Shown here: in pieces, positions 3,711 through 41,633 of the stretch | How positions within the stretch are numbered: the first letter of the stretch is position 1 | Layout of the letters: each line of letters begins with the position of its first letter | Source of the DNA: Nanobdellota archaeon | GTDB taxonomy: Archaea > Nanobdellota > Nanobdellia > Parvarchaeales > Parvarchaeaceae | DNA: 41,633 bases | Assembly: GCA_021850635.1 (NCBI GenBank) | Contig: JAJZLM010000003.1 | Coordinates: 1-41,633, forward strand | Direction of reading: 5' to 3' | Position numbers and translations under genes: made by a program | Notes under the pieces: model-generated | What the model was told of the DNA's origin: nothing | Databases searched by the model: none | Seen by the model: the letters and a program-made list of their open reading frames with translations, nothing else

Positions 3711-3828
3711 GCAGGGGTAGCGAAGCCCGGCCCAACGCGCAGGACTTAAGATCTGTCAAGCTCTATTGATTAAGATTTGGAAATCCTGCGGCTTAGCGCC
3801 CTCGTGGGTTCAAATCCCACCCCCTGCA
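3711..3828 (+). tRNA. tRNA-Leu(TAA) with 32-nt intron at 37/38 (3751-3782)
   Basis: Acceptor GCAGGGG/CCCCTGC + A73; anticodon stem CAGGA/TCCTG; TAA at 3747-3749; long variable arm; TTCAAAT T-loop. Confidence 0.9.
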
Positions 3829-23635: not shown

Positions 23636-24081
23636 ACTGCGAGCTTTGTGGATTCACAGACGATAAATTCTATAGAGTAGAGATAGAGGGTGCAGTGATG
23701 ACGGTCTGCTCAAAATGTTCATCATTCGGCAAAATAATCAAAGAGGTAGAGGAACATGAAATAGAAAAGAAACCACAGAAATCATACGGATTCGTAGAGA
23801 GAAGCTTAAAGATGGATTACCTTGAGATACTTAATAATGCAATGAATGAGAAAAACATGACGGCAGAGAAGCTGGCAGAGGAAATAAAAGAGTCCCCATA
23901 CGAGATTAAAAAGATACTAAAAGGAAAGATAATGCCTACAGATGCAATAGCTAAAAAAATAGAGAGCGCTCTTAAGGTATCCATATATGAGGATATAGTC
24001 GGCACTTTCAAACCGACTAAGGAGTCCAACGAAGTTTCTATAGATTACATCGCTCAGATAAAACAAATGAAGCAGGGGTAG
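23632..24081 (+). CDS. mbf1: Archaeal multiprotein bridging factor aMBF1 (Zn ribbon + HTH)
   Basis: CELCG...IEGAVMTVCSKC followed by Cro-like HTH; its stop codon lies inside the tRNA-Leu gene. Confidence 0.9.
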   Translation: MNCELCGFTDDKFYRVEIEGAVMTVCSKCSSFGKIIKEVEEHEIEKKPQKSYGFVERSLKMDYLEILNNAMNEKNMTAEKLAEEIKESPYEIKKILKGKIMPTDAIAKKIESALKVSIYEDIVGTFKPTKESNEVSIDYIAQIKQMKQG

Positions 24082-24157
24082 CGAAGCCCGGTCCAACGTG
24101 TGAGGCTTAGGACCTCATGGCTTAGCGCCCTCGTGGGTTCAAATCCCACCCCCTGCA
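24072..24157 (+). tRNA. tRNA-Leu(TAG), no intron
   Basis: GCAGGGG/CCCCTGC + A73; TGAGG-CT-TAG-GA-CCTCA arm; long variable arm. Confidence 0.93.
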
Positions 24158-24172
24158 TTTATGCTCGCATTA

Positions 24173-24323
24173 AAGACGTTTTCTAAACTAGAGAGTCACC
24201 GCTCGTCATATCATCCGGTCGAATTAAGCTAGTCTTATCAAATGTGAGCGGGAAAACCCACACTCTTTAGAGGTGGGAGGATGTCACCCTAAGAACCGTG
24301 AGATAGTAGGTGCTTAGCGTTTT
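24173..24323 (+). ncRNA. Candidate structured RNA, 5S-rRNA-like, interrupted by a 49-bp mini-IS
   Basis: With 24239-24287 removed, about 102 nt fold by eye as a three-way junction and contain CTCGT..CCGG..GAATTAAGC; not confirmed with a covariance model. Confidence 0.35.
24239..24287 (+). mobile_element. 49-bp single-hairpin IS200/IS605 derivative, copy 1
   Basis: CAAATGTGAGCGGGAAAACCCACACTCTTTAGAGGTGGGAGGATGTCAC; identical to 34143-34191(-); first 40 nt identical to the IS left end at 41350; preceded by TTAT; no target duplication. Confidence 0.9.
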
Positions 24324-24398
24324 CTGCTAAAAACTATAAAAAGCATTTAAATATTACCAAAATCATTAAGTAGTATAATTAAAAATGGAAAACGTGAG

Positions 24399-24797
24399 GT
24401 GTTTATGGTGAATTTGCCTTTCGACAAGTTTTTGGATCTGTTCAAGAAGAAAGTGAACCTTGAAGAATCTAATGAGTACGTTGAATTGGAGGTAGACCAA
24501 AAAGATAGGCCTATCGCAAAGATGTATGTGAAGTATTTCGCTCTTGTGAAATTCGAGGACGCAGGCTCAGTTCTAAACGACATAAGATCAGGTTCGACGC
24601 TGTTGTTCATAAAGATAAAGGACATAAAAGATAAAGGCGGCATAGAAGAGCTGAAGAGGACTATTTCAAAGATAAAGAGGAGCGCTGACGCATCGGAAGC
24701 GCAGGTCGTAGGGATAGATGAGGATTACATCCTGGTCGTGCCTAACTTCGTGAAAGTGGAAAAAGGGGAGATTTTATCCCAGACTCCTACAGTTTAA
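24399..24797 (+). CDS. sepF: Archaeal SepF (DUF552) cell division protein
   Basis: N-terminal amphipathic helix; EYVEL; DIRSG..LFIKI; ELKRTISKIK; YILVVP.FVKV. Confidence 0.8.
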   Translation: MFMVNLPFDKFLDLFKKKVNLEESNEYVELEVDQKDRPIAKMYVKYFALVKFEDAGSVLNDIRSGSTLLFIKIKDIKDKGGIEELKRTISKIKRSADASEAQVVGIDEDYILVVPNFVKVEKGEILSQTPTV

Positions 24798-25126
24798 TCA
24801 GAAGAGTTCTCTGTTAGAGCTAAGGCAGCTGCGGCTATAGCTGGTTTGTCCTGGTCCTTGATTATATTTAACATCGTAAACTTTTCGCATATAGAATCGA
24901 TCTCAGGCTTTTGAACGCGTCTTACCTTGATTGTATTGAACTGAAACTCTACATCCTTGTAGATTTCTACCGTGCTTTCATCCATACCTACTGTATCCGG
25001 TTTTGCAGTATCGAGTATGTTTTTTGCATCGTTAACGTTCTTTACTCTGTATATTTGGACCGCCGAATTTATCAGTACTGCCACTATCAATTGACCGTTC
25101 ACTATAGTTATTCCCGCGCTTTTCAT
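24794..25126 (-). CDS. Hypothetical protein, possible small RNase H-like fold
   Basis: Beta-beta-beta-alpha-beta pattern (AGITI..LIVAVL..KPDTVGMDE) and C-terminal AIAAAALA helix; fold assignment tentative. Confidence 0.5.
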   Translation of the reverse strand: MKSAGITIVNGQLIVAVLINSAVQIYRVKNVNDAKNILDTAKPDTVGMDESTVEIYKDVEFQFNTIKVRRVQKPEIDSICEKFTMLNIIKDQDKPAIAAAALALTENSSD

Positions 25127-25670
25127 AGATCTTTACCAACAGCAATTCTTCAAAGAAGAATTTCTTCCTGTCTAGAACTTTAAACTCAAAGTTAATAGAT
25201 TCCAGCGCCTTATAAACTTTACGCACGTCGTATACGGTGGAAATTATCAGGTAAATCTCGCCGCCTTCTTTGAGATGCTGCTTAGACTGCTTTAGTGCTT
25301 CTATTGTCAGCTCGTACCCATCTTTGCCACCACTAATAGACAGTTCAGCTGCATCTTTTCCGTTCCTATCGCCGGGCAAGTATGGAGGGTTCATATATAT
25401 AACGTCAAACGACAAACCCGCAAGGTCACTGAAAAGATCGGATATGACGGTCTTACAGTTTGTTAGGCCATTTTCCTCGATTTTTTGGTCTATAAACTTT
25501 ATGGAAGACTGATTTATGTCCGCGAACGTGACGCTTTTAGCCTTTTTGGCGGCTTCCAGGCCGACCACTCCCTTACCAGCGAACAATTCAAGTACGTCTC
25601 CTCTCGCGTACTCAACCGCTTCTGATAGTAACACAGAATCTTCCGCAGGGTCGTATACGAAACCATCCAT
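25032..25670 (-). CDS. HemK/Mtq2-family N5-glutamine methyltransferase
   Basis: VYDPAEDS.LL, VLELFAGKG, NPPYLP, SGGKDG; start may be 25670 (ATG) or 25700. Confidence 0.88.
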   Translation of the reverse strand: MDGFVYDPAEDSVLLSEAVEYARGDVLELFAGKGVVGLEAAKKAKSVTFADINQSSIKFIDQKIEENGLTNCKTVISDLFSDLAGLSFDVIYMNPPYLPGDRNGKDAAELSISGGKDGYELTIEALKQSKQHLKEGGEIYLIISTVYDVRKVYKALESINFEFKVLDRKKFFFEELLLVKIYEKRGNNYSERSIDSGSTDKFGGPNIQSKER

Positions 25671-25800
25671 TTTCCCCTCGTCCGTAGTTTGATATCCCAC
25701 ATTTGAAATTGCCGTGAAAGATTTATTAATGTTAAGGTTTATAATTTAACAGTGGTTGATAGGTGCTTTAAGCTTATACGCCTGTGTATGTTGTGAAAGT

Positions 25801-26283
25801 ATGGTAAAAAAGACGAGTCTGTATGTAATATCCGGCTCAGTGGTGCTCTTTATAGCGCTACTCATAGTGTCCGTGGTATATTCACCTAGGTCTCCAGTAG
25901 AGGCACTACAAACTGTCACTGTCAACTGCACTGGCGCAAACTTATCCTTCACGTACTACACCCCAAGCTCCATAAATGCACAGATAGATACGAATACTTT
26001 CGGAGTGGTACACGTCAATAGCACGGGCAACACCAATTCGTCTGTTAGCCTTACTGCTGATCAGACGGATGGACTTTCTGTGAGCGTGGCGAAGCCTTTC
26101 AACATGTCTTCGGGTAAGTACAACTACTACACGGAATACGAGATAATAAACCCCACTCTTTTAGGCAATTATACGCTGAACTTCAATCTTTCAAACTTCA
26201 GAGGATCGTGTCAGTATTCGAAGTCGTTCGACGTGAATGTACATGTAGTCAAATCACCGCAGAATTCGACTAACTCATCGTAA
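25801..26283 (+). CDS. Membrane-anchored extracellular protein (hypothetical)
   Basis: KK followed by TM helix; S/T/N-rich beta-like region with many NxS/T sequons; two Cys. Confidence 0.7.
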   Translation: MVKKTSLYVISGSVVLFIALLIVSVVYSPRSPVEALQTVTVNCTGANLSFTYYTPSSINAQIDTNTFGVVHVNSTGNTNSSVSLTADQTDGLSVSVAKPFNMSSGKYNYYTEYEIINPTLLGNYTLNFNLSNFRGSCQYSKSFDVNVHVVKSPQNSTNSS

Positions 26284-26287
26284 TAAG

Positions 26288-26626
26288 ATGGAAAACAGCA
26301 TAATAACAGACAGGTCTCTCAGTACGATAGACAAGTCCAAAGACTATAAAGTTAGAGTCGTAGGTACTGTGGAGTCCATAGATGAGGGAATAGGCACATT
26401 CGTGCTTTCCGATGGAGGCGTAAAAATAACATGCCTGCCCCCAGTGTCTCCGAACGAAAAGCCAGAAAAAGGAGAAAAAGTCACGGTCGTAGGCAGGGTA
26501 GCCCAGGCAGGAAACGATGAGGTTGAGATAAGGACGGACCACATAGAAAGGATATCAGAGGCAGACTACGAAAATTACAATAAATATTTAAAGCAAAGAA
26601 GAGACTTATTAAGTAATGGAAGCTGA
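26288..26626 (+). CDS. Single OB-fold protein (RPA small-subunit-like)
   Basis: KVRVVGTV, FVLSDGG, GEKVTVVGRV; immediately upstream of PCNA. Confidence 0.75.
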   Translation: MENSIITDRSLSTIDKSKDYKVRVVGTVESIDEGIGTFVLSDGGVKITCLPPVSPNEKPEKGEKVTVVGRVAQAGNDEVEIRTDHIERISEADYENYNKYLKQRRDLLSNGS

Positions 26627-27356
26627 ATTAAAGGATTCTGAATTGTTCAAAAAGATAATGGAGACAGTAGGTAGCCTAATGGCAGACGTTTCTATAGACT
26701 TTACGCCAGAAGGAATGTCGATAAAAGCCATGGATCCTGCCAATATAGCAATGATACTGTTCGAGAGCGGAAAAGACATGTTTGACACATTTAAGGTAGA
26801 CAAAGACACCAAACTTTCGGTGTCTTTAGATGATTTAAACGGCATACTCAGGCTGGTAAAGAAAGGAGACAAGGTCAAGATAAACGACAACGGATCAAAA
26901 ATGAATCTTGATATAAACGGCAAAACAAAGATGCATTTTGGCATACCGCTGATAGATGAGAATTATACCACTCAGAAAGTACCGCAGCTAAAGTTCACGG
27001 CCGAAGTGACTATACTAAGTTCGGTGGTCAAGGATGCTATAAAAGCAGGGTTTCTTGTGGACGATTCGCTTTATCTTACAGTGGATAACCAAAGGTTCAT
27101 ACTGAGTTCTAGGAGCGAAGAGAAGGAGTTCTCGGAGGACCTGTACATAAATGACAGCAAGGAACTTTTCAACATAAACTCAGAAGGTTTAACCAGGTCC
27201 AAGTATTCCATAGAATATCTGACAAAATTCGTAAACGCACTCGACCCCGAAAAACCGCTCAAGATGTCTTTCTCTAATAACTACCCGCTCAGGCTAGACT
27301 ATGATTTTGATGCGACTACAAAACTTTCTTTCGTGCTCGCTAACAGAATAGAATAG
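26616..27356 (+). CDS. pcn: DNA sliding clamp PCNA
   Basis: KAMDPANIAM, SKYSIEYL, YPLRLDY, FVLANRIE; 246 aa. Confidence 0.96.
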   Translation: MEAELKDSELFKKIMETVGSLMADVSIDFTPEGMSIKAMDPANIAMILFESGKDMFDTFKVDKDTKLSVSLDDLNGILRLVKKGDKVKINDNGSKMNLDINGKTKMHFGIPLIDENYTTQKVPQLKFTAEVTILSSVVKDAIKAGFLVDDSLYLTVDNQRFILSSRSEEKEFSEDLYINDSKELFNINSEGLTRSKYSIEYLTKFVNALDPEKPLKMSFSNNYPLRLDYDFDATTKLSFVLANRIE

Positions 27357-27361
27357 ACCCG

Positions 27362-27802
27362 TTAGAGAGATAAAAGTTCGTCTTCATAAACAGGTAAATT
27401 GATCAGGAGCTCCTTCAGTCCGTTTATGTCGACGCCGAGTATTTTACCGCTGGCCTCAGAGTGCTGCAGCAGAGAATTACTCTTGTTCCTTGTGACTAGG
27501 AGGATTATCTTCCTCTTGTATTCCAATTCAGGACGTAGTTTGACTAGGTTTTCCGCACGTATCTTCTGCTTCCTTATAAATTCGTCTTCTTCAGAAGGAG
27601 GTATGTACGCATGGTCTTTGCAGTCCACAAAGAAACACCTAGTACCATCGTAAGCTATCACGTCGACTTGGAATCTTCTCACGGTCTTGAACCTAACGTC
27701 AGCTTCTGTTTTGTAACCGAAACTCTCAAAAATGTCGTGCACTAACTTTTCAAAAGCCTTCCAGTCCGTGCTTTCGTGCTTTACTTCGACGTCGAAATAC
27801 AT
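27362..27802 (-). CDS. PD-(D/E)XK restriction-endonuclease-like protein (Mrr_cat-like)
   Basis: WKAFEKLV..IF..GY, QVDVIA, VDCK; ATG 27802 preferred because the longer ORF overlaps tRNA-Gly. Confidence 0.78.
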   Translation of the reverse strand: MYFDVEVKHESTDWKAFEKLVHDIFESFGYKTEADVRFKTVRRFQVDVIAYDGTRCFFVDCKDHAYIPPSEEDEFIRKQKIRAENLVKLRPELEYKRKIILLVTRNKSNSLLQHSEASGKILGVDINGLKELLINLPVYEDELLSL

Positions 27803-27811
27803 AATCAAAAA

Positions 27812-27898
27812 TGCATCGGCCGGGATTCGAACCCGGGCCTCCACCTTATCGCTGTATTATTGGCAAGGTGATGTCTTAACCAGCTTGACTACCGATGC
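27812..27898 (-). tRNA. tRNA-Gly(GCC) with 14-nt intron at 37/38 (27847-27860)
   Basis: GCATCGG/CCGATGC + A73; TCACC-TT-GCC-A[ATAATACAGCGATA]A-GGTGG; 4-bp central helix TTGC/GCGA. Confidence 0.92.
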
Positions 27899-27975
27899 CA
27901 GGTAGCTGATACTAACTAGAACTAGACATTCACATTTATAAATTTATAGATAAGCTGGCGATTTACAGTTTGAAC

Positions 27976-28056
27976 AAAAAAAGGAACTTGCTGCCGAGGT
28001 TTATGCCAGCAAGTCCCCTAACAGACAAAATGCCCGCAGTATCTAATCCAGGGTTC
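27976..28056 (-). ncRNA. Candidate small structured RNA or strong terminator (two hairpins + U7)
   Basis: 11-bp stem GGGACTTGCTG/CAGCAAGTTCC followed by T7; upstream imperfect stem; G-U pairs work only on the minus strand. Confidence 0.45.
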
Positions 28057-28105
28057 TATTCCGAATATAGTCAATATTTATCAATGAGCAGATGCTAAGT
28101 GGATT

Positions 28106-30514
28106 ATGGACACGAAAGCCTTCGATAGCCTAAGCGTTGAAGAAACATTGGAACGGCTGAACAGCAGCCCCGCGGGCATCTCGGACGAAGAAGCGGAGTC
28201 CAGGCTGAAACAATATGGGTTCAACGAAGTCGTAGGTAAAAAACAGAGTGTCGTGCTGAAGTTTCTATCTAAGTTTGCAAGCACAATCTCGATAATACTA
28301 TATATAGTAATAGTCATCGCTGTTTACCTCGGTGATTACATAGACGCGTACATCATAGCGGGTCTTGTAATATTCAATGGAATAACGTCCTTTCTGGAGG
28401 AGTACAAGGCAGACAACACAGTCGAGCAGCTAAAAAGCAAACTAGCAGTAATAGTAAAATTAAAAAGAAGCGGAGAATGGAAGATAGTGCCTGCAAAAAT
28501 GCTCGTGCCGGGAGATATAATAAGGGTACGTATGGGGGATATCGTGCCCGCAGACGCGAAGATAATAGAGAGCGATTACCTTTCCGTAGACCAGTCTATG
28601 CTCACGGGAGAGTCTCTTCCTGTAGATAAAAACATCGGGGAGATAGCCTTTTCATCGTCCATAGTAAGGGAAGGAGAAGCTACAGCGGTAGTAATCTCCA
28701 CAGGTAAGAGCACGGCTTTCGGTAAGACAGCAGAACTGATAAACACAGCAAAAACAAAAACGCACCTAGAGTCCGAGATATTCAAGCTTCTGAAGTACCT
28801 TATGTTTCTGGATGCAGCTCTTATCGTAGGTGTTTTGGTAGGGTCGTATGCATTCGGTATGCATTTGCTGTCTATAGTGCCTTTCGCCCTGCTTCTGTTG
28901 CTTACTTCCGTGCCTGTTGCCCTCCCTGCAGCCTTTACCGTCGCGATGGCTTACGGTGCGCAAAGACTGTCCTCAAATAATATATTGATCACAAAACTCG
29001 AGTCCATAGAAGAAGCATCTACGATGAATATTGTATGCCTGGATAAGACGGGTACAATAACCAAGAATGAGCTGTCTATATCGGACCCTATACATGCAGG
29101 CAGTTTTTCAGAGGATGAAGTCTTAATGTACGGTTCGATGGCCTCGCGCGAAGAGGATAATGACCAGATAGACCTAGCGATAATAAAAGGAGCAAAGAAA
29201 AGAGGGATAAAGTCTTCTGGTTATGAACAGGTCTCATTTAAACCATTTACTCCAACCACAAAGATATCCAGCGCTGTACTGACGTTAAATGGGAAAAGAA
29301 TCGAAGTTGCAAAAGGTTTTCCAAAAGTAATAATAGGGATGTGCGGATCATCAGCCGGGGAGCTGGACAGCATAGCTTCTAATATTAAGAATCTGGAATC
29401 TAGAGGGTTCAGAACGATAGCCGTAGCTTACAAAGCGGACGTCGGATGGAAGCTAGTCGGGATAATACCATTAAATGACAAGCCTAGGGAAGACAGCAAG
29501 GAGCTTATAGACGAGCTGAAATCTTTGAACTTGCAGGTGAAGATGCTGACAGGCGACAATGTCGATGTCGCCAGGGTTATAGCTGAAGAAGTAGACATCG
29601 GTTCAAACATACTGGACTTAGGTGCTCTAAACGGCAAAAACGAGAGCGAGATAAATGACATGATTAAAAATGCGGACGGATTCGCAGGGGTTTTCCCGAA
29701 AGATAAATACACTGTAGTGAAAGCTCTACAAGACTCCGGCTTTCACGTCGGTATGACAGGCGATGGAGTCAACGATGCTCCGGCGCTGAAGCAGGCAGAA
29801 GTAGGCATAGCGGTCCTAAACTCTACGGACGTGGCCAAGAGCGCATCAGACATAGTCCTAACTTCGGACGGTATAGAACCTATAGTAAGCGCCGTTAAGG
29901 AGAGCCGTTCCATATTTGAAAGGATGGTTACTTATACGATAAAGAAAGTATCCAGAGTACTGAACCTGTCTATATTCCTATCTATCGCTTTCCTACTGTT
30001 GAAGTTCCTGCCTATATTGCCTACCCAGCTTGTACTTTCTATATTCTTGAGTGATATAGGAAGCATAAGTCTTTCAACGGACAATGAGCAGTACTCGGGC
30101 AGACCAGACACATGGAGTATAAAATCGATATTCTTAGTCTCTTTGATATTCGGCGTAGCCGCGCTCATAGAGGTTTCTTTGCTTTCGTATATAGCGCTAG
30201 GCTATTTAGGGTTTAATCACGGACAGTTCCAGACGCTGGTATTTCTTATATTCATAGTCTCTATGGAGATAACTACTCTGTCTATGAGGGAGAGAAAGAG
30301 TTTCTGGTCGTCTATGCCCAGCAAAGCAGTGCTTTTACAGATAATCTTATCCGTAAGCATAGTCATCGTACTTGCATATTATGGTATATTGATGACACCG
30401 ATAAGTCTTGCGTACATATTACTGACTTTAGGGCTAACAGTAGTGTTCCTGTTCTTTGTGGACGGCATGAAGCTGCTCGTGTTCAAAAGATTCCCCACGT
30501 TCATGTCGATATAG
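28106..30514 (+). CDS. P-type ATPase, P3A plasma-membrane H+-efflux type
   Basis: TGES, DKTGT, TGDGVNDAPALK, M4 PVALPA, acidic M6 FLSDIGSISLSTD; about 800 aa with no regulatory tail. Confidence 0.88.
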   Translation: MDTKAFDSLSVEETLERLNSSPAGISDEEAESRLKQYGFNEVVGKKQSVVLKFLSKFASTISIILYIVIVIAVYLGDYIDAYIIAGLVIFNGITSFLEEYKADNTVEQLKSKLAVIVKLKRSGEWKIVPAKMLVPGDIIRVRMGDIVPADAKIIESDYLSVDQSMLTGESLPVDKNIGEIAFSSSIVREGEATAVVISTGKSTAFGKTAELINTAKTKTHLESEIFKLLKYLMFLDAALIVGVLVGSYAFGMHLLSIVPFALLLLLTSVPVALPAAFTVAMAYGAQRLSSNNILITKLESIEEASTMNIVCLDKTGTITKNELSISDPIHAGSFSEDEVLMYGSMASREEDNDQIDLAIIKGAKKRGIKSSGYEQVSFKPFTPTTKISSAVLTLNGKRIEVAKGFPKVIIGMCGSSAGELDSIASNIKNLESRGFRTIAVAYKADVGWKLVGIIPLNDKPREDSKELIDELKSLNLQVKMLTGDNVDVARVIAEEVDIGSNILDLGALNGKNESEINDMIKNADGFAGVFPKDKYTVVKALQDSGFHVGMTGDGVNDAPALKQAEVGIAVLNSTDVAKSASDIVLTSDGIEPIVSAVKESRSIFERMVTYTIKKVSRVLNLSIFLSIAFLLLKFLPILPTQLVLSIFLSDIGSISLSTDNEQYSGRPDTWSIKSIFLVSLIFGVAALIEVSLLSYIALGYLGFNHGQFQTLVFLIFIVSMEITTLSMRERKSFWSSMPSKAVLLQIILSVSIVIVLAYYGILMTPISLAYILLTLGLTVVFLFFVDGMKLLVFKRFPTFMSI

Positions 30515-30758
30515 ATTATAAGGAGTTTCTAATTTTGAGCTGGTTTAAGTGGTACTGCACCATTTTTGCTTGAATATTCGTGAACACGAATCTTTGAGTG
30601 ATACTTTGCATTTAATCGACCGATTTAAAAAGCGCTTATCTTCTCTTAATTTGTTGAGATCTTACTCGTTTTTAAAACACTATATATATGTTAATTTACA
30701 CCTGGCTTGCTACGCAGAAAACACCAGCCAATCCATCTATGCTGATAGAATATCTGTA

Positions 30759-31388
30759 TTATACTCCCACGCTACCATATTCCCATAAGTATATGCATGC
30801 TACTGTGCTGTAAGGATGCCATAACCTTTCCAGTTTATCGAATCTTTCTTTGGTCGGATATTTTTTTAACTTGTACAGCCTCTTTATGCCATTTCTTATC
30901 CCAAGGTCATCCCTGGCGAGGACGTCTGTCCTGCCTAGACTGAATATAAGGAACATCTCCGCGGTCCATCTGCCTATCCCCTTTACTCCATCTAATTCAT
31001 TTATCACTGTTTCGTTAGGCAACCTGTTGAACTTTTTTAGCTCTACGCGCCCGTCAAGTATTCTTTCTGACAGATCCTTTATGTAAGATATTTTCTGTGG
31101 TGACAACCCAGCCGAAGAAAGCTGCTTATTAGAGGTATGCAGGTACTCTCTCGGCGTCGGCATCCTCCCACCGCATATCTCTTCCAATCGCTTTCTTATA
31201 GATTCAGCCGCAGCTCCGGATATTTGTTGGGAGATTATAGAGCGCACCAGAGTGCCAAAATAATCCGAATGTCTGTTTATGCGGATATATCCGATTCTGT
31301 CTATCACTCTTCCGATTGTTTTGTCTCTTTTTTTAAGGGATCTCATCGCCTCGAGCCATACTTCTTTTTTTGATATCGAATCAAACAT
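30759..31388 (-). CDS. alkA: DNA-3-methyladenine glycosylase II (AlkA/HhH-GPD)
   Basis: IISQQIS, GLSPQK, VKGIGRWTAEMFLIFSLGR.DV, WHPY. Confidence 0.92.
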   Translation of the reverse strand: MFDSISKKEVWLEAMRSLKKRDKTIGRVIDRIGYIRINRHSDYFGTLVRSIISQQISGAAAESIRKRLEEICGGRMPTPREYLHTSNKQLSSAGLSPQKISYIKDLSERILDGRVELKKFNRLPNETVINELDGVKGIGRWTAEMFLIFSLGRTDVLARDDLGIRNGIKRLYKLKKYPTKERFDKLERLWHPYSTVACIYLWEYGSVGV

Positions 31389-31436
31389 AAAAAAGATTAA
31401 TACCTCATGAACTATATATAGTACTGTTATTGTAGT

Positions 31437-32054
31437 ATGGATAGTTATAAGAAAAGACCAGCGCCAGGCGAGCATTACATAAAAGACTTCATAATATACG
31501 ACGCTTTGGGTGGCAAGGAAATAGATAGAGGCAAGTGGTCGCTTAAACTAACAGGCTTAGTGGAAAATAAATTGACGCTGTCATACGCGGATCTGTTGAA
31601 AAGAAGAGAAGTATCTTACATAGAGGATTTCAACTGCGTGACTGGATGGGCCGTTAAGGACGTGAGATGGGGAGGTGTTTCACTTCGGGATATAATCACA
31701 GAGGCGAAACCGACTAAGGACGCAAAGTGGGCAATGTTCAAATGTGCAGACGGGTATTCGACTCCAGTCAAGCTGGAAGACGTTCTATCCGGCGGGTCGA
31801 TCATCGCTCTAAAAATAAATGACAAGCCCCTGACATTCGAGCAGGGGGCCCCTGCGAGACCTTTCATACCCAGCCTATACGGATGGAAGAGCGCGAAATG
31901 GCTCACAGAGGTAGAACTGATCCAAGATTACGAAGATGGTTACTGGGAAAGATACGGTTATCATCAGCGTGGCAGAGTAGCAGAAGAAGAGCGATTCCAG
32001 AGCTACGAATGGAAGAATATAAAGAAGCACGTACGCAGGATTCTGAGGCTATGA
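31437..32054 (+). CDS. Sulfite-oxidase-family molybdopterin oxidoreductase
   Basis: DFNCVTGW, WGGV, DGYST, GAPAR, YGWKSAKWL, GYWE..GYH. Confidence 0.9.
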   Translation: MDSYKKRPAPGEHYIKDFIIYDALGGKEIDRGKWSLKLTGLVENKLTLSYADLLKRREVSYIEDFNCVTGWAVKDVRWGGVSLRDIITEAKPTKDAKWAMFKCADGYSTPVKLEDVLSGGSIIALKINDKPLTFEQGAPARPFIPSLYGWKSAKWLTEVELIQDYEDGYWERYGYHQRGRVAEEERFQSYEWKNIKKHVRRILRL

Positions 32055-32602
32055 CTGAAAATAGAAAGCATATCTCCAAGAGGAGGAGATTGCTCGTGCT
32101 CGATTTTGATGATACTTTATTTTTCACAGAAGAAGCTCTATCGCTGGCTTCGGAGGAAGTATTCGGAAAAAGGATACCTGTTTCCGAGATAAGGAAGATG
32201 GAAAATGCGGTGAAACAGCCATTTTATGAACACACCGCCGTGAAATACAAGGAGTATCTAAAGCCGAACGGTAGACTTATAGGGTTGTCTAAGACACTCA
32301 AGCTAAAAGGGTACGAAGTAATAGTCCTAAGCGGAAGGCACGAAGGCCAATTGGAAGAAACAAAATACAGCCTAGACCTGCATAAAATCCCTTACAAGGC
32401 GATAATACTCTCTAAGAAAGGCAGGACCATAAGCAATGCCGAGTGGAAAGCAAGAGCCTTATCTGAATATATTCCACGTTACCACGAGATACTTTTTTTC
32501 GATGACGATATCGCTAACATAAAGTTTATAAAGAAAAAATTCGCGGGTAAAAACATCAGATTTTTCCTCGTGAACAAGAGAGGAGAAAGAGAGATAAAGT
32601 AA
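32051..32602 (+). CDS. HAD-superfamily phosphatase (paralog 1)
   Basis: LDFDDTL, LSGR, WK, FDDD; ATG overlaps the upstream stop (ATGA). Confidence 0.82.
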   Translation: MTENRKHISKRRRLLVLDFDDTLFFTEEALSLASEEVFGKRIPVSEIRKMENAVKQPFYEHTAVKYKEYLKPNGRLIGLSKTLKLKGYEVIVLSGRHEGQLEETKYSLDLHKIPYKAIILSKKGRTISNAEWKARALSEYIPRYHEILFFDDDIANIKFIKKKFAGKNIRFFLVNKRGEREIK

Positions 32603-32663
32603 GTTAGTGATACAAAGTGCGCTGCAGATACTGATTTAAACTATAATGATTCTATAAATCTGT

Positions 32664-33233
32664 ATGTCCGTTAAAAAAGGCCCTAAGAGGACAAAATCTA
32701 ATAGAGCCAGGAGAAAACTAATAGTCTCAGACTTAGACGGTACCATCTTCTTCATAGATAACAGCATAATTTTAGCATCGATGGAGCTGCTCGGTATGCC
32801 GTTTGATAGGAAAAAAGTTAGCAAACTGGAGATGTCGATAAAAAGAAACATCTATAATCTGGCGTTCTCAAAGTACAGCGATAATCTAGAACCTAACATA
32901 AGTTTAATGGAAAAATTCTTTAAAATGAAAAGAGAAGGGTACGAACTGATAATCTTAAGTGCAAGAGAAGAGACTTTAAGGAAACAAGCCGAAAGAAATT
33001 TGAGCATCTATGGGATAGAGTACGATAAGATGATACTACAGAAAGAACCATGGGATATCAACATCGAGAAATGGAAAGCTACCATCATAGAGGAGTATGT
33101 AGGCGGCTACGACGAGATACTTCTGTTTGAAGACACACAGAAGAACATAGACGAGATAAGGGAAAAACTAGGTGGTAGGTACATAAAGTATTTTCATGTC
33201 GATAAAAATGGAGTGAAAGAGCTAAAAGAGTGA
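32664..33233 (+). CDS. HAD-superfamily phosphatase (paralog 2)
   Basis: SDLDGTI, LSAR, WK, FED; colinear with 32051-32602. Confidence 0.82.
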   Translation: MSVKKGPKRTKSNRARRKLIVSDLDGTIFFIDNSIILASMELLGMPFDRKKVSKLEMSIKRNIYNLAFSKYSDNLEPNISLMEKFFKMKREGYELIILSAREETLRKQAERNLSIYGIEYDKMILQKEPWDINIEKWKATIIEEYVGGYDEILLFEDTQKNIDEIREKLGGRYIKYFHVDKNGVKELKE

Positions 33234-33237
33234 TTTT

Positions 33238-34146
33238 ATGGTAACCGCTCTAATTTCGTCAAAGGAACTGAAAAGCGATGCGCTCAACTCCATAATCTCA
33301 AAGAAACTAGACAATATCAACGGAGTCCAGATAGCTCTGGATAAAAAAGGAGGGGTAATAGTGTATTCTTTGGATTATCCCACGTCGGTCAACGCGATGA
33401 TGCGTGCACTGTCCATAGCAGACGACGCAATATTCGTGATAAACGATGAGATCACCGCTATAGACGCAGAATTGGCCCTCGCCGTCGAAAACTCCGATAT
33501 AGATACAGTGATTCCGGTAAAATTAGAGTATTCAGATGAGAGCAGCTTTTCCAAATTGTTTGGAAACTACAAAGTAGGTAGGTCTAAGATCATCACAATG
33601 AAAGAAGCGGCGGAACTGCCTAAGATTGAGAGACGAAGTCCTGATTTTTCTTATGTATCTGTAGACAAGCATTTCATAGTCAAGGGGATAGGCAGCGTCA
33701 TAATAGGGTTCAACCTCGGCGGGACAGTAAAGAAAGGGGATAAGCTGCATCTTCTTCCAACATTAAAAGACGTTTCTATAAAGAGTATACAGATAATGGA
33801 TGTGGACTCCCAAACAGCAAGCAGCGGCCAGCACGTGGGGTTAGCGTTAAACAATATAAATGGGGAGGACCTTTCTGAGAACTACGCAGTGTCATCTATA
33901 GGCTCTGTGGCTGAAAAGTTCAGCTGCAAGTTTGACAAGTCAAAATTCTATAGTATAGAGACTTTAGCCGATAGGGACCTCGGGTGTGCGTTGCTCGGAA
34001 AGAATTTCAGCGTTTCCATAGAAGAAGCAGACACTTCTATAAGATTCAATAGACCTGTGCCTAAAATCGGCGGTAAACATCTTATAATGGACGCGAGTTT
34101 ATCAGTAGGCAAGAACAGAGTAGTAGGCAGCTTCGAATTCGCGTGA
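33238..34146 (+). CDS. SelB/EF-Tu-like protein with degenerate G domain (aSelBL-like)
   Basis: Domain II VDKHFIVKGIGSVIIG..GTVKKGD...IKSIQIMD...GQHVGLAL; no P-loop in the N-terminal part. Confidence 0.8.
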   Translation: MVTALISSKELKSDALNSIISKKLDNINGVQIALDKKGGVIVYSLDYPTSVNAMMRALSIADDAIFVINDEITAIDAELALAVENSDIDTVIPVKLEYSDESSFSKLFGNYKVGRSKIITMKEAAELPKIERRSPDFSYVSVDKHFIVKGIGSVIIGFNLGGTVKKGDKLHLLPTLKDVSIKSIQIMDVDSQTASSGQHVGLALNNINGEDLSENYAVSSIGSVAEKFSCKFDKSKFYSIETLADRDLGCALLGKNFSVSIEEADTSIRFNRPVPKIGGKHLIMDASLSVGKNRVVGSFEFA

Positions 34147-34191
34147 CATCCTCCCACCTCTAAAGAGTGTGGGTTTTCCCGCTCACATTTG
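34143..34191 (-). mobile_element. 49-bp single-hairpin IS200/IS605 derivative, copy 2
   Basis: Exact reverse complement of 24239-24287; target TTAT (ATAA at 34192-34195); supplies the TGA stop of the upstream gene. Confidence 0.9.
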
Positions 34192-34207
34192 ATAAGAATG
34201 CGCGCAC

Positions 34208-34221
34208 AAAAGCTTTATATA
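34208..34221 (+). promoter_or_regulatory. BRE-TATA promoter
   Basis: AAAAGC-TTTATATA about 40 nt upstream of the 34261 ORF. Confidence 0.55.
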
Positions 34222-34260
34222 TACCTAATAATCATTATATGGTAGTAAAACTATAATAAT

Positions 34261-35118
34261 ATGGCAGGAAACGGAACAAATACGGGTCAAAGCGGTTCGA
34301 AGGCTAATAAGCTTAGTTTGGAGCAGGTACTAGGCGCCAGCAATTTCGATGCATATAAACAGATAGCGACGGTCATAGACAGCTACATGCAGACGAAGGA
34401 TCATCCAGGTTTCAGCGTGGTCAACATGGGCAATTATATGTATAACGCCTTGTTGACTATCTCAAAGGAAGTGACGGACCCAGCCCTAGCAGCGATGCTC
34501 GAGATGAAGAGGCACGCGCTTGAAGAATCTATAAAATACAAGACTATCACCAAAGAATCCCTTGACGGGATAGCGAACTATCTTAAGGACTTTCTGCCAC
34601 CTTATCTAGATAAAATAAAAGACAGTATCGGAGCGGACAATCATAAGAGTATGGCTATGGGTATAATGTTGAATATAGGCAAGTATCCCGATGAGTTCAA
34701 GAAGATATCATCGGTTAAAGGAGGAGCCAAGCCTGCTCAGCTTTCGCTTATATTAGATGAATTAAACAACGATTTGAACAACAATGATACTTCAAAAATC
34801 GCATCTTATTACAAGAAATTATCGTCTCCTGAAGTGGAAAAAGCATATGTAAAGTTAGGAATGACTCCGGACAATGCAAAAAAAGCGTTTGTGGACGGCA
34901 ATAAATGCTACGCTGATCTGGTAAATTCCTTGAGCGAAAATGCAAAGATAGAACACATGACCTACGTGCAAAAGATACTTATGAGTGAAATATACAGACA
35001 GAGCAAGAACATAGACGGAGATGCGCTAAAACAAGCGCTCGAGAGCTCTGACCCAGTGAACTACCTGAATATGTTGCCTTTAGCTGTAAAACAAGGCAGC
35101 AACTATTTGGGTGTCTAG
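34261..35118 (+). CDS. Hypothetical soluble, probably all-alpha protein
   Basis: 285 aa ORF with its own promoter; no recognisable motif. Confidence 0.75.
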   Translation: MAGNGTNTGQSGSKANKLSLEQVLGASNFDAYKQIATVIDSYMQTKDHPGFSVVNMGNYMYNALLTISKEVTDPALAAMLEMKRHALEESIKYKTITKESLDGIANYLKDFLPPYLDKIKDSIGADNHKSMAMGIMLNIGKYPDEFKKISSVKGGAKPAQLSLILDELNNDLNNNDTSKIASYYKKLSSPEVEKAYVKLGMTPDNAKKAFVDGNKCYADLVNSLSENAKIEHMTYVQKILMSEIYRQSKNIDGDALKQALESSDPVNYLNMLPLAVKQGSNYLGV

Positions 35119-41306: not shown

Positions 41307-41349
41307 CTTGCCGCAAAGCTTATAATAAACCTAAAGCATAACGGTTTAT

Positions 41350-41633
41350 CAAATGTGAGCGGGAAAACCCACACTCTTTAGAGGTGGGATGAAAGCGAAC
41401 TCAAAAATGGAAAACATAAATAACAGAAGAGGTAAAATAACAATATGCTGACGGCATACAAATTCAGGTTGTACCCAAATGAAAAACAGCAGAGCCTCTT
41501 CTCGAAATACTTCGGCTGCAGCAGGGTAGTGTGGAACAAAGCGTTAGAGTTAAAGGAAGAGTATTACAAAGAGCACAAGGACGACAAGACAAAGAAGGGA
41601 TTGAACTACTATGATACCGCAAGATTTTTAAGG
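41350..41633 (+). mobile_element. IS200/IS605-family (IS1341-like) element, left end; continues past window
   Basis: TTAT target, AAAA guide, imperfect hairpin CCCACACTCTTTAGAGGTGGG, then tnpB; no room for tnpA upstream of tnpB. Confidence 0.88.
41445..41633 (+). CDS. tnpB: TnpB RNA-guided endonuclease (N-terminus, truncated by window)
   Basis: MLTAYKFRLYPNEKQQSLFSKYFGCSRVVWNKAL, the HTH_OrfB_IS605 pattern. Confidence 0.92.
   Translation, partial: MLTAYKFRLYPNEKQQSLFSKYFGCSRVVWNKALELKEEYYKEHKDDKTKKGLNYYDTARFLR

Follow-up and report, generated by a model that had tools for sequence, protein, structure and literature searches.

According to the parts of Dyall-Smith et al. (2011, PMC3119063) on which we draw, the PATE HqIRS46 of Haloquadratum walsbyi has two near-terminal palindromes that form a 22-bp direct repeat, and in four cases the complete element is found in one strain and a 52-bp 'terminal-only' form in the other. 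By way of a 19-bp repeat, the 1,500-bp tnpB transposon ISHwa23 has likewise been shortened to a 52-bp PATE. The same account records six strain-specific insertions, all of them of the 52-bp form, which in its wording 'may indicate' mobilisation, and it also notes insertions despite the tnpA genes being pseudogenes. In our literature search, one-hairpin IS200/IS605 units were found in the cited sections of the Haloquadratum paper only (PMC3119063), and the portions of Meers et al. 2023 (PMC10055086) and of a Halanaerobium study (PMC7290912) used here describe only PATE-like elements that keep both ends. Because terminal-only PATEs have been described since 2011 (as excerpted from PMC3119063), the 49-bp scar discussed below is not new in kind, and the same 52-bp forms overturn the statement of the original prediction that described PATEs keep both end hairpins.

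The units reported here agree with those of Haloquadratum, as far as the cited sections describe the latter, in having an IS605-type parent whose palindrome is a direct repeat (22 and 19 bp there, 22 nt here). They also agree in leaving a residue without target duplication (52 bp there, 49 here), the presence of which differs between strains. At about 50 bp, each combines the 5' and 3' termini of the parent with a single near-terminal palindrome, and the repeat of the parent is exact over 22 nt. A functional tnpA is lacking or scarce in both systems, and in both the mobility of the short form is a question. The host in our case, on the other hand, has a genome of ~0.6 Mb with archaeal-type promoters and comes from mine-drainage-type samples. 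In the excerpted account of Haloquadratum, the full and the deleted form occur at one site in the four HqIRS46 cases, whereas only an empty and a solo allele are seen at one site here. The guide content of the scar and several junction types across the genus, by comparison with the same excerpts, are worked out here.

IS608 and ISDra2, which move by 'peel and paste' with a Y1 HUH TnpA, have in common with the present element, in the descriptions drawn on here, subterminal imperfect hairpins, insertion 3' of a tetranucleotide without duplication, and 4-nt guides, with left cleavage 18-19 nt 5' of the hairpin foot and right cleavage within 10 nt 3' of it. They differ in that no tnpA was found here, either in the element or in the genome. 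The tetranucleotides also differ, the IS608 target being TTAC with guide AAAG and its right site TCAA, compared to TTAT with AAAA and TCAC with GAAG here. According to the original prediction, the right guide of IS608 is GAAT, which reads TCAA. In the cited part of the IS608 work (PMC3201880), the left cleavage site lies 19 nt from the foot and the right one 10 nt from it, with the four nucleotides 5' of each foot serving as guides; a robust two-end synaptic complex no longer forms once the right guide or the right cleavage site is lost (PMC3201880).

Two-hairpin PATEs and MITE-like derivatives, in the accounts consulted, are non-coding and built of element ends, and they are likewise present in the genome studied here and in its genus. 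They have both hairpins and guides and are thought to be mobilisable in trans, whereas the 49-mer has one hairpin and the guide AAAA only. Solo LTRs arise by recombination between direct terminal repeats, which removes the coding interior and leaves one copy of the repeat. Here the repeat measures 22 nt, not hundreds, and unique sequence from each end is kept; the route is likely to be slippage or microhomology annealing rather than ordinary homologous recombination. Finally, REP/RAYT systems (TnpA-REP) have, according to the excerpts used (PMC3333891, PMC8266576), a single short hairpin related to IS200/IS605 ends, as is the case here. In contrast to them, our units number five, a RAYT/Y1 gene was not found and there is no sign of conservation, and they do not qualify as a REP/RAYT system.

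The window analysed in the present work, 41,633 nt long, is the whole of contig C7 of a draft genome (G000) with 28 contigs and 569,477 bp, rated 89.9% complete. It contains two identical 49-mers on opposite strands, called solo 1 and solo 2 (Table 1), each preceded by TTAT and ending in TCAC. Their 40-nt start equals positions 41350-41389, a left end that is also preceded by TTAT, and directly after the hairpin the 49-mers and this left end part ways, as had been claimed, with GGATGTCAC in the former and TGAAAGCG in the latter. The 40-mer has three matches in the window, compared to none in 100 dinucleotide-preserving shuffles. The original prediction spoke of two identical elements. The identity of the window copies holds, while the number does not, the draft containing five such units, four identical and one with a single change. 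A more sensitive BLAST search of the draft recovers the same five units, and no decayed 49-mers were found in it.

Table 1. Positions of the 49-bp units, their parts, the parent element and neighbouring features. Positions without a contig prefix refer to the window; C3, C6 and C22 are other contigs of the draft genome.
Feature	Position	Strand	Remark
tRNA-Leu(TAG)	24072-24157	+	81 nt upstream of solo 1
TTAT, target and left cleavage tetranucleotide of solo 1	24235-24238	+	
Solo 1, 49-bp terminal-only unit	24239-24287	+	between tRNA-Leu and SepF-like gene
Solo 1, left-end 5' part	24239-24256	+	guide AAAA at 24253-24256
Solo 1, hairpin block, 22 nt	24257-24278	+	common to left and right ends
Solo 1, right-end tail GGATGTCAC	24279-24287	+	TCAC at 24284-24287
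ORF, 302 aa, EF-Tu domain 2 match	33238-34146	+	stop codon inside solo 2
Solo 2, same letters as solo 1	34143-34191	-	
Solo 2, parts	34191-34174 (left-end part), 34173-34152 (hairpin), 34151-34143 (tail)	-	
TTAT target of solo 2	34192-34195	-	ATAA on the + strand
TTAT target of full-length element	41346-41349	+	
Left end and tnpB start of full-length element	41350-41633	+	ATG at 41445; element of ~1.4 kb, stopped by contig end
Solo unit	C3:10904-10952	+	
Solo unit	C6:3811-3859	-	
Solo unit, one mismatch	C22:5986-6034	+	

Each unit is non-coding and is made up of 18 nt of left end, the 22-nt hairpin and 9 nt of right end, so composed that the 49-mer agrees with the left end as far as the last base of the hairpin (40/40 nt) and, from the first base of the hairpin onwards, with the right end (31/31 nt). 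TTAT precedes all five solos and all three subfamily-A left ends of the draft. The solos keep the left guide AAAA, the TTAT in the flank and the TCAC at the tip, and they are without the right guide GAAG. They are as many as the right ends of full copies in the draft (five and four, respectively) and sit in short intergenic spacers adjoining promoters.

Regarding the surroundings, an Rfam search over the window gives three tRNAs only, none of them at the solos. One, of 118 nt at 3711-3828 (+), is not reported by ARAGORN, probably owing to an intron inside it; a tRNA-Ala of 87 nt lies at 27812-27898. Boxes of the TTTAAATA type are seen ~25-30 nt upstream of genes, for example at 24353-24360 and 34213-34222, and together with the 118-nt tRNA and the tRNA-Ala they point to an archaeon with a very small genome.

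We now turn our attention to the parent element. The right end of the copy at 41350 is unreadable, because the window is the whole of contig C7 and ends inside the element. Right ends of the same family were read at or near the ends of four other contigs (C12, C28, C23 and C25), and all four have the form ...GCGGAAG-CCCAC(A/G)CTCTTTAGAGGTGGG(A/G)-GGATGTCAC, with GAAG directly 5' of the hairpin foot. Left ends have AAAA directly 5' of the foot. The right end is thus of the kind that had been anticipated, a hairpin followed by GGATGTCAC with a GAAG-like guide, and the guides also fall as expected from the proposed rule, by which AAAA would pair with TTAT and TCAC would need GAAG. The distance from TTAT to the foot is 18 nt, and from the foot to the end of TCAC it is 10 nt, a spacing that agrees with that of IS608. 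The shared 22-nt block CCCACACTCTTTAGAGGTGGGA forms a direct repeat near both element ends, being present in all three subfamily-A left ends (two with one mismatch) and in all four right ends (two with 1-2 mismatches).

The left piece on C7 and a 906-nt right piece on C25 are collinear with one 1,396-bp element of another genome, called L043, at 80% and 81%, respectively. The ORF of L043 matches OrfB_IS605 (PF01385, E 6.7e-28) and PF07282, the Cas12f1-like TNB domain (E 6.2e-23). These domains and the collinearity supply the TnpB trait of the family, and the other traits are read from the draft itself: subterminal imperfect palindromes at both ends without terminal inverted repeats, insertion 3' of a fixed tetranucleotide without target-site duplication, and predicted guide pairs, AAAA with TTAT at 18 nt and GAAG with TCAC within 10 nt. 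To judge from its sequence, the parent is a tnpB-only IS200/IS605-family element, IS1341-like, of ~1.4 kb. It is repeated in the draft, where it breaks the assembly at no fewer than seven contig ends, that is, at least 7. L043 is the sole fully assembled element of its type inspected, and this copy is probably a pseudogene. At L043:1580-1700 (G042:C22) there is a frameshift near the tnpB start, where the reading MLTAYKFRLYPNK... ends after ~35 codons and then goes on in another frame.

No cognate TnpA was found for the parent element of the draft, whether in cis or in trans. The draft, which is incomplete at 89.9%, gave no match to PF01797 (the Y1 family), and tblastn with the TnpAs of the genus gave nothing significant in it (best E 0.70). 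Of the 33 genomes of the genus, 2 match PF01797, and the elements concerned differ in their hairpins and in their tnpB. Apart from the three TnpA loci themselves, tblastn found no TnpA near the fetched loci.

Several other element derivatives were observed along the way. At C9:5600-5803 of the draft there is a non-coding ~200-bp derivative with a left hairpin of the sister subfamily, a different right hairpin and a degenerate left tip without TTAT. It is one of the two-hairpin derivatives of 200-350 bp, the others lying on G020:C1, G003:C44 and G004:C23. The sequence at C23:16813-17106 is a ~290-bp broken remnant, in which an internal tnpB fragment runs directly into the 3' half of the right hairpin. 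A second element family, with the right end GGAACCCCATCAATTTATTGGTGGGAGGATGTCAG, has the common GGGAGGATGTCA tail and another hairpin; it is found in the draft at C5:7683-7695, and several copies stand at contig ends in G005 and G011 (loci L019, L034 and L044).

The site of solo 2 could be compared between strains. The stretch 24200-34195 is present in 11 runs of three studies, and the contigs of four runs were compared over 23800-34600. In run X5, which belongs to another study, a 2,647-nt contig covers 33127-34142 and continues with 34192-34600, exactly the 49 nt being absent with nothing between. The X5 strain differs from the window at 17 of 8,860 positions (~0.2%). Since this empty allele joins 34142 to 34192 without letters between, there is no target duplication at solo 2, which, with the TTAT before and the TCAC at the end of the sequence, agrees with what had been stated. 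The closest species, G018, is likewise without the unit at site 2; there the ORF ends in ...EFS-stop, and the same AAAGCTTTATATA box follows after 9 nt. Site 2 was thus originally empty and acquired its solo recently. Another X5 contig (record 15) crosses a whole solo with its TTAT, in other flanks; the unit is thus not an assembly shortcut, because it is crossed in full in independent raw data.

In contigs built with k=31, a solo and a full element at one site are indistinguishable, and the only difference seen with them is that between empty and solo at site 2. At site 1, the stretch 24148-24281 is spanned by no contig of the four runs. For solo 1, the spacer between tRNA-Leu and the SepF-like gene was located in 8 relatives, where the flanks are 70-87% alike and too diverged to align. 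Of the alleles that the original prediction had sought in the genome and its relatives, the empty one was hence obtained at one of the two sites, and a full-length one at a solo site was not seen.

The insertion of solo 2 touches the end of a gene. The right-end tip, GTGA on the + strand, gives the TGA stop (34144-34146) of the ORF at 33238-34146, and in the empty allele the ATAA of the target gives a TAA stop to the same ORF. Two of the five solos (34143-34146; C6:3811-3814) are placed in this way, on the minus strand at the very end of a + strand ORF, with the tip GTGA supplying TGA. At these two ORF ends the last codon is altered in the third base alone (GCA to GCG and CCA to CCG), and insertions at xxA-TAA gene ends are therefore silent for the protein.

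A degenerate pattern was run over all 33 genomes of the genus, 15 of which contain matches; the 74 matches were then sorted by guides and flanks. Single-hairpin units are present in nine genomes: five in G000, two in G018, and one each in G013, G042, G003 and the remaining ones. Their junctions differ. In the unit of G045, the hybrid guide AAAG places the crossover inside the guide, in that of G046 the left-end 5' part is joined upstream of GAAG, and in that of G019:C18 a left end ...GGGAA is joined to CCGGAAG. The hairpin of the G013 unit has a left-type 5' half and a right-type 3' half, and the single unit of G011 is classed on the guide alone. The reciprocal product, with GAAG and a left-end tail, has no instance among the 74 matches in the 33 genomes. 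In G020, the left and right ends have an identical 22-nt hairpin, yet there is no solo among its 9 matches; solos are not predicted by hairpin identity alone.

Eight solo loci of other species were also tested on G000. Four were placeable by their flanks on contigs of G000, none of them at a solo site of G000, and the flanks of the other four (from G042, G003, G046 and G019) were unmatched. BLAST matches in G018 suggest that more, older copies exist there. The solos at G003:C20 and G018:C14 have their left flank in common (84% over 600 nt), and the homology fades at the right-end tip. The two solos are ~72% alike, compared to 88-97% for the adjacent flank, and the pair could stem either from one old scar inherited by both species or from two separate events at the same TTAT. 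Upstream of the solo, a stretch of ~110 nt at L026:1330-1440 (G003:C20) is ~97% identical to its counterpart in L036 (G018:C14), the neighbouring gene being ~84% identical; this stretch may be an unannotated RNA gene.

In metagenome contigs, the exact solo pattern has no match, while a broader right-end pattern is found at 124 loci at least; in viral contigs, the right-end pattern has no match. The guides of the 123 right ends with context, among the matches listed, are GAAG in 116 cases and of left type in 7 (AAAA 3, AAAG 3, AAAT 1), and two of the three AAAA loci, L067 and L141, have the same flanks. No pair of a solo and a full element at one site was seen by eye among these at least 124 loci. 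A search for tnpB beside the 124 listed loci, which used one C-terminal query, misses diverged TnpBs and is not a count of short elements, found it at 37, did not find it at 29, and had too little upstream DNA at 58. Two loci, L136 and L157, carry 53-nt units at 301-353 of the oriented locus, in which TTAT is followed by ~22 nt of right-end sequence that includes the guide GAAG, then by the hairpin and by GGATGTCAC. The two units share one junction while their flanks differ on both sides; their only hairpin is that of the right end, and the left-end part amounts to no more than 1-2 nt. A sister subfamily (L071, L128 and L135) has TTAC with the guide AAAG, as in IS608, and the guide of its single-hairpin units therefore differs from GAAG at the first position only.

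The right ends from metagenomes also bear on the hairpin itself. Its DNA fold, in left and right ends, consists of CCCAC, a bulged A or G, and CTC, pairing with GAG and GTGGG around the loop TTTA. The thermodynamic fold of the 53-mer is weakly better than that of shuffled sequences (z -1.78, with 8 of 200 shuffles as good). Across the 124 related right ends, among the matches listed, the inner stem covaries: 12 of 30 distinct combinations pair at 3/3 positions, whereas 2,000 shuffles gave 3.0 on average and never more than 9. The support for the hairpin comes from this covariation, because the fold energy alone is unremarkable.

From the anatomy, guides, copy number, empty allele and junctions described above, we infer that the 49-bp units are probably terminal-only remnants of the tnpB element, left as immobile scars by homology-driven deletion between the end hairpins. 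Such a deletion between the two 22-nt CCCACACTCTTTAGAGGTGGGA copies would remove tnpB, the omega-RNA region and one hairpin, by replication slippage or by annealing during break repair. Behind TTAT there would remain the first 18 nt of the left end, a single hairpin and the last 9 nt of the right end, and the resulting scar would not move again and would later decay. Immobility is the most likely state of the unit, because the right guide GAAG is lost and the transposase dimer, which requires two hairpins, would meet only one. New here are the precise empty allele, the variety of junctions within the genus and the account of which guides the scar contains.

The recombination scar between end hairpins, as originally proposed, gains support from the 22-nt identity and from the differing junctions. 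In other species these junctions fit independent homology-driven deletions, not one spreading founder, and so favour a recombination scar over a one-hairpin mobile unit. The draft also contains other deletion derivatives, at C9:5600-5803 and C23:16813-17106. Against the deletion reading, the insertion that preceded solo 2 and the deletion must both fall within ~0.2% divergence, and all five units are young and on a par in number with the full copies counted by their right ends (5 and 4). The k=31 contigs gave no site at which one strain has the full element and another the solo, and the one junction at two sites in L136 and L157 is poorly explained by independent deletion.

It is rather unlikely that the 49-mer is itself mobile, such that after a founder deletion a TnpA acting in trans would cut at TTAT and TCAC and insert the unit at further TTAT sites. 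Such movement would produce near-identical copies, of which there are five, each at a TTAT of its own, and it would also produce the precise difference seen at ~0.2% divergence between an occupied site and an ancestral empty one. Both cleavage tetranucleotides are kept at IS608-like distances, and in a pairing scheme drawn by analogy AAAA would mismatch TCAC at the last position only. The two right-end-only 53-nt units (L136 and L157), with one junction at two sites, also fit movement, as do the six strain-specific insertions of Haloquadratum, all of the 52-bp form, which according to the cited sections 'may' be mobilised (PMC3119063). However, the unit offers one hairpin where TnpA dimers bind two, and it is without GAAG, the loss of which destroys the IS608 synaptic complex in the part of that work used here (PMC3201880). 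A cognate TnpA was found neither in G000 nor in the genus (33 genomes), and the several junction types across species indicate repeated origin. The identity of the copies is no proof of copying, because any crossover within the 22 identical nt yields the same product. Unlikely, too, is that the scars are made in one step tied to the activity of the element, and not by slow spontaneous slippage. TnpB could cut the vacated donor, after which the ends would copy inward from the sister and anneal at the 22-nt identity, as an abortive homing; or a polymerase could switch template between the hairpins while TnpA holds both. This would account for young scars as numerous as full copies, one of them within 0.2% divergence. 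In P and Ac/Ds elements, gap repair that is left incomplete is known to produce internal deletions at short repeats. Break repair driven by TnpB from the sister copy is established for the family, according to the portion of Meers et al. cited (PMC10055086). Since the scar parts TTAT from the former target, TnpB could presumably no longer cut there. The end product of a one-step origin, however, would be the same as that of plain slippage, the TnpA required to vacate the site was not found in G000, and the tnpB copies of G000 are incompletely assembled.

It is very improbable that selection keeps the units for an exapted, REP-like function, such as that of a terminator or a protein-binding hairpin. 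They do lie in short intergenic spacers beside promoters, and REPs resemble IS200/IS605 end hairpins in the excerpt used (PMC3333891), but there are only five copies, no RAYT or Y1 gene was found, and among the flanks that could be placed no G000 site is common to the solos of other species. The possible orthologues in G003 and G018, at ~72% compared to 88-97% for the flank, indicate decay and not conservation, and the empty allele is viable. Hardly credible is an assembly artefact in which a wrong path was taken through the 22-nt repeat and a full element was passed over. The parent is indeed repeated and breaks the assembly at seven or more contig ends, but an independent k=31 contig crosses a whole solo, and a 31-mer graph needs reads that bridge the 22-nt repeat. 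Unrelated metagenome assemblies contain like units as well, as do the MAGs of 8 other species.

We see an outside chance that the one-hairpin unit of ~50 nt is the smallest mobilisable form of IS200/IS605, or else the one-step product of abortive TnpB homing. As the smallest mobile form, it would be cut at TTAT and TCAC by a TnpA in trans with a single guide and hairpin, or two units would pair. If either were true, the scars would report the activity of the element and would act as homing-resistant alleles.

If, as we consider probable, the units are deletion scars, tnpB and omega-RNA elements would be purged fast by deletion between their end hairpins in a second, unrelated archaeal lineage, one with a very small genome. 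The purge would leave a recognisable trace of 49 bp, one that escapes annotation pipelines. Mobility of the short form has been in question since 2011, and a left guide that is kept together with a right guide that is lost gives a concrete and testable reason to expect immobility. The scars would mark former insertion sites of the element and could serve to count its past activity.
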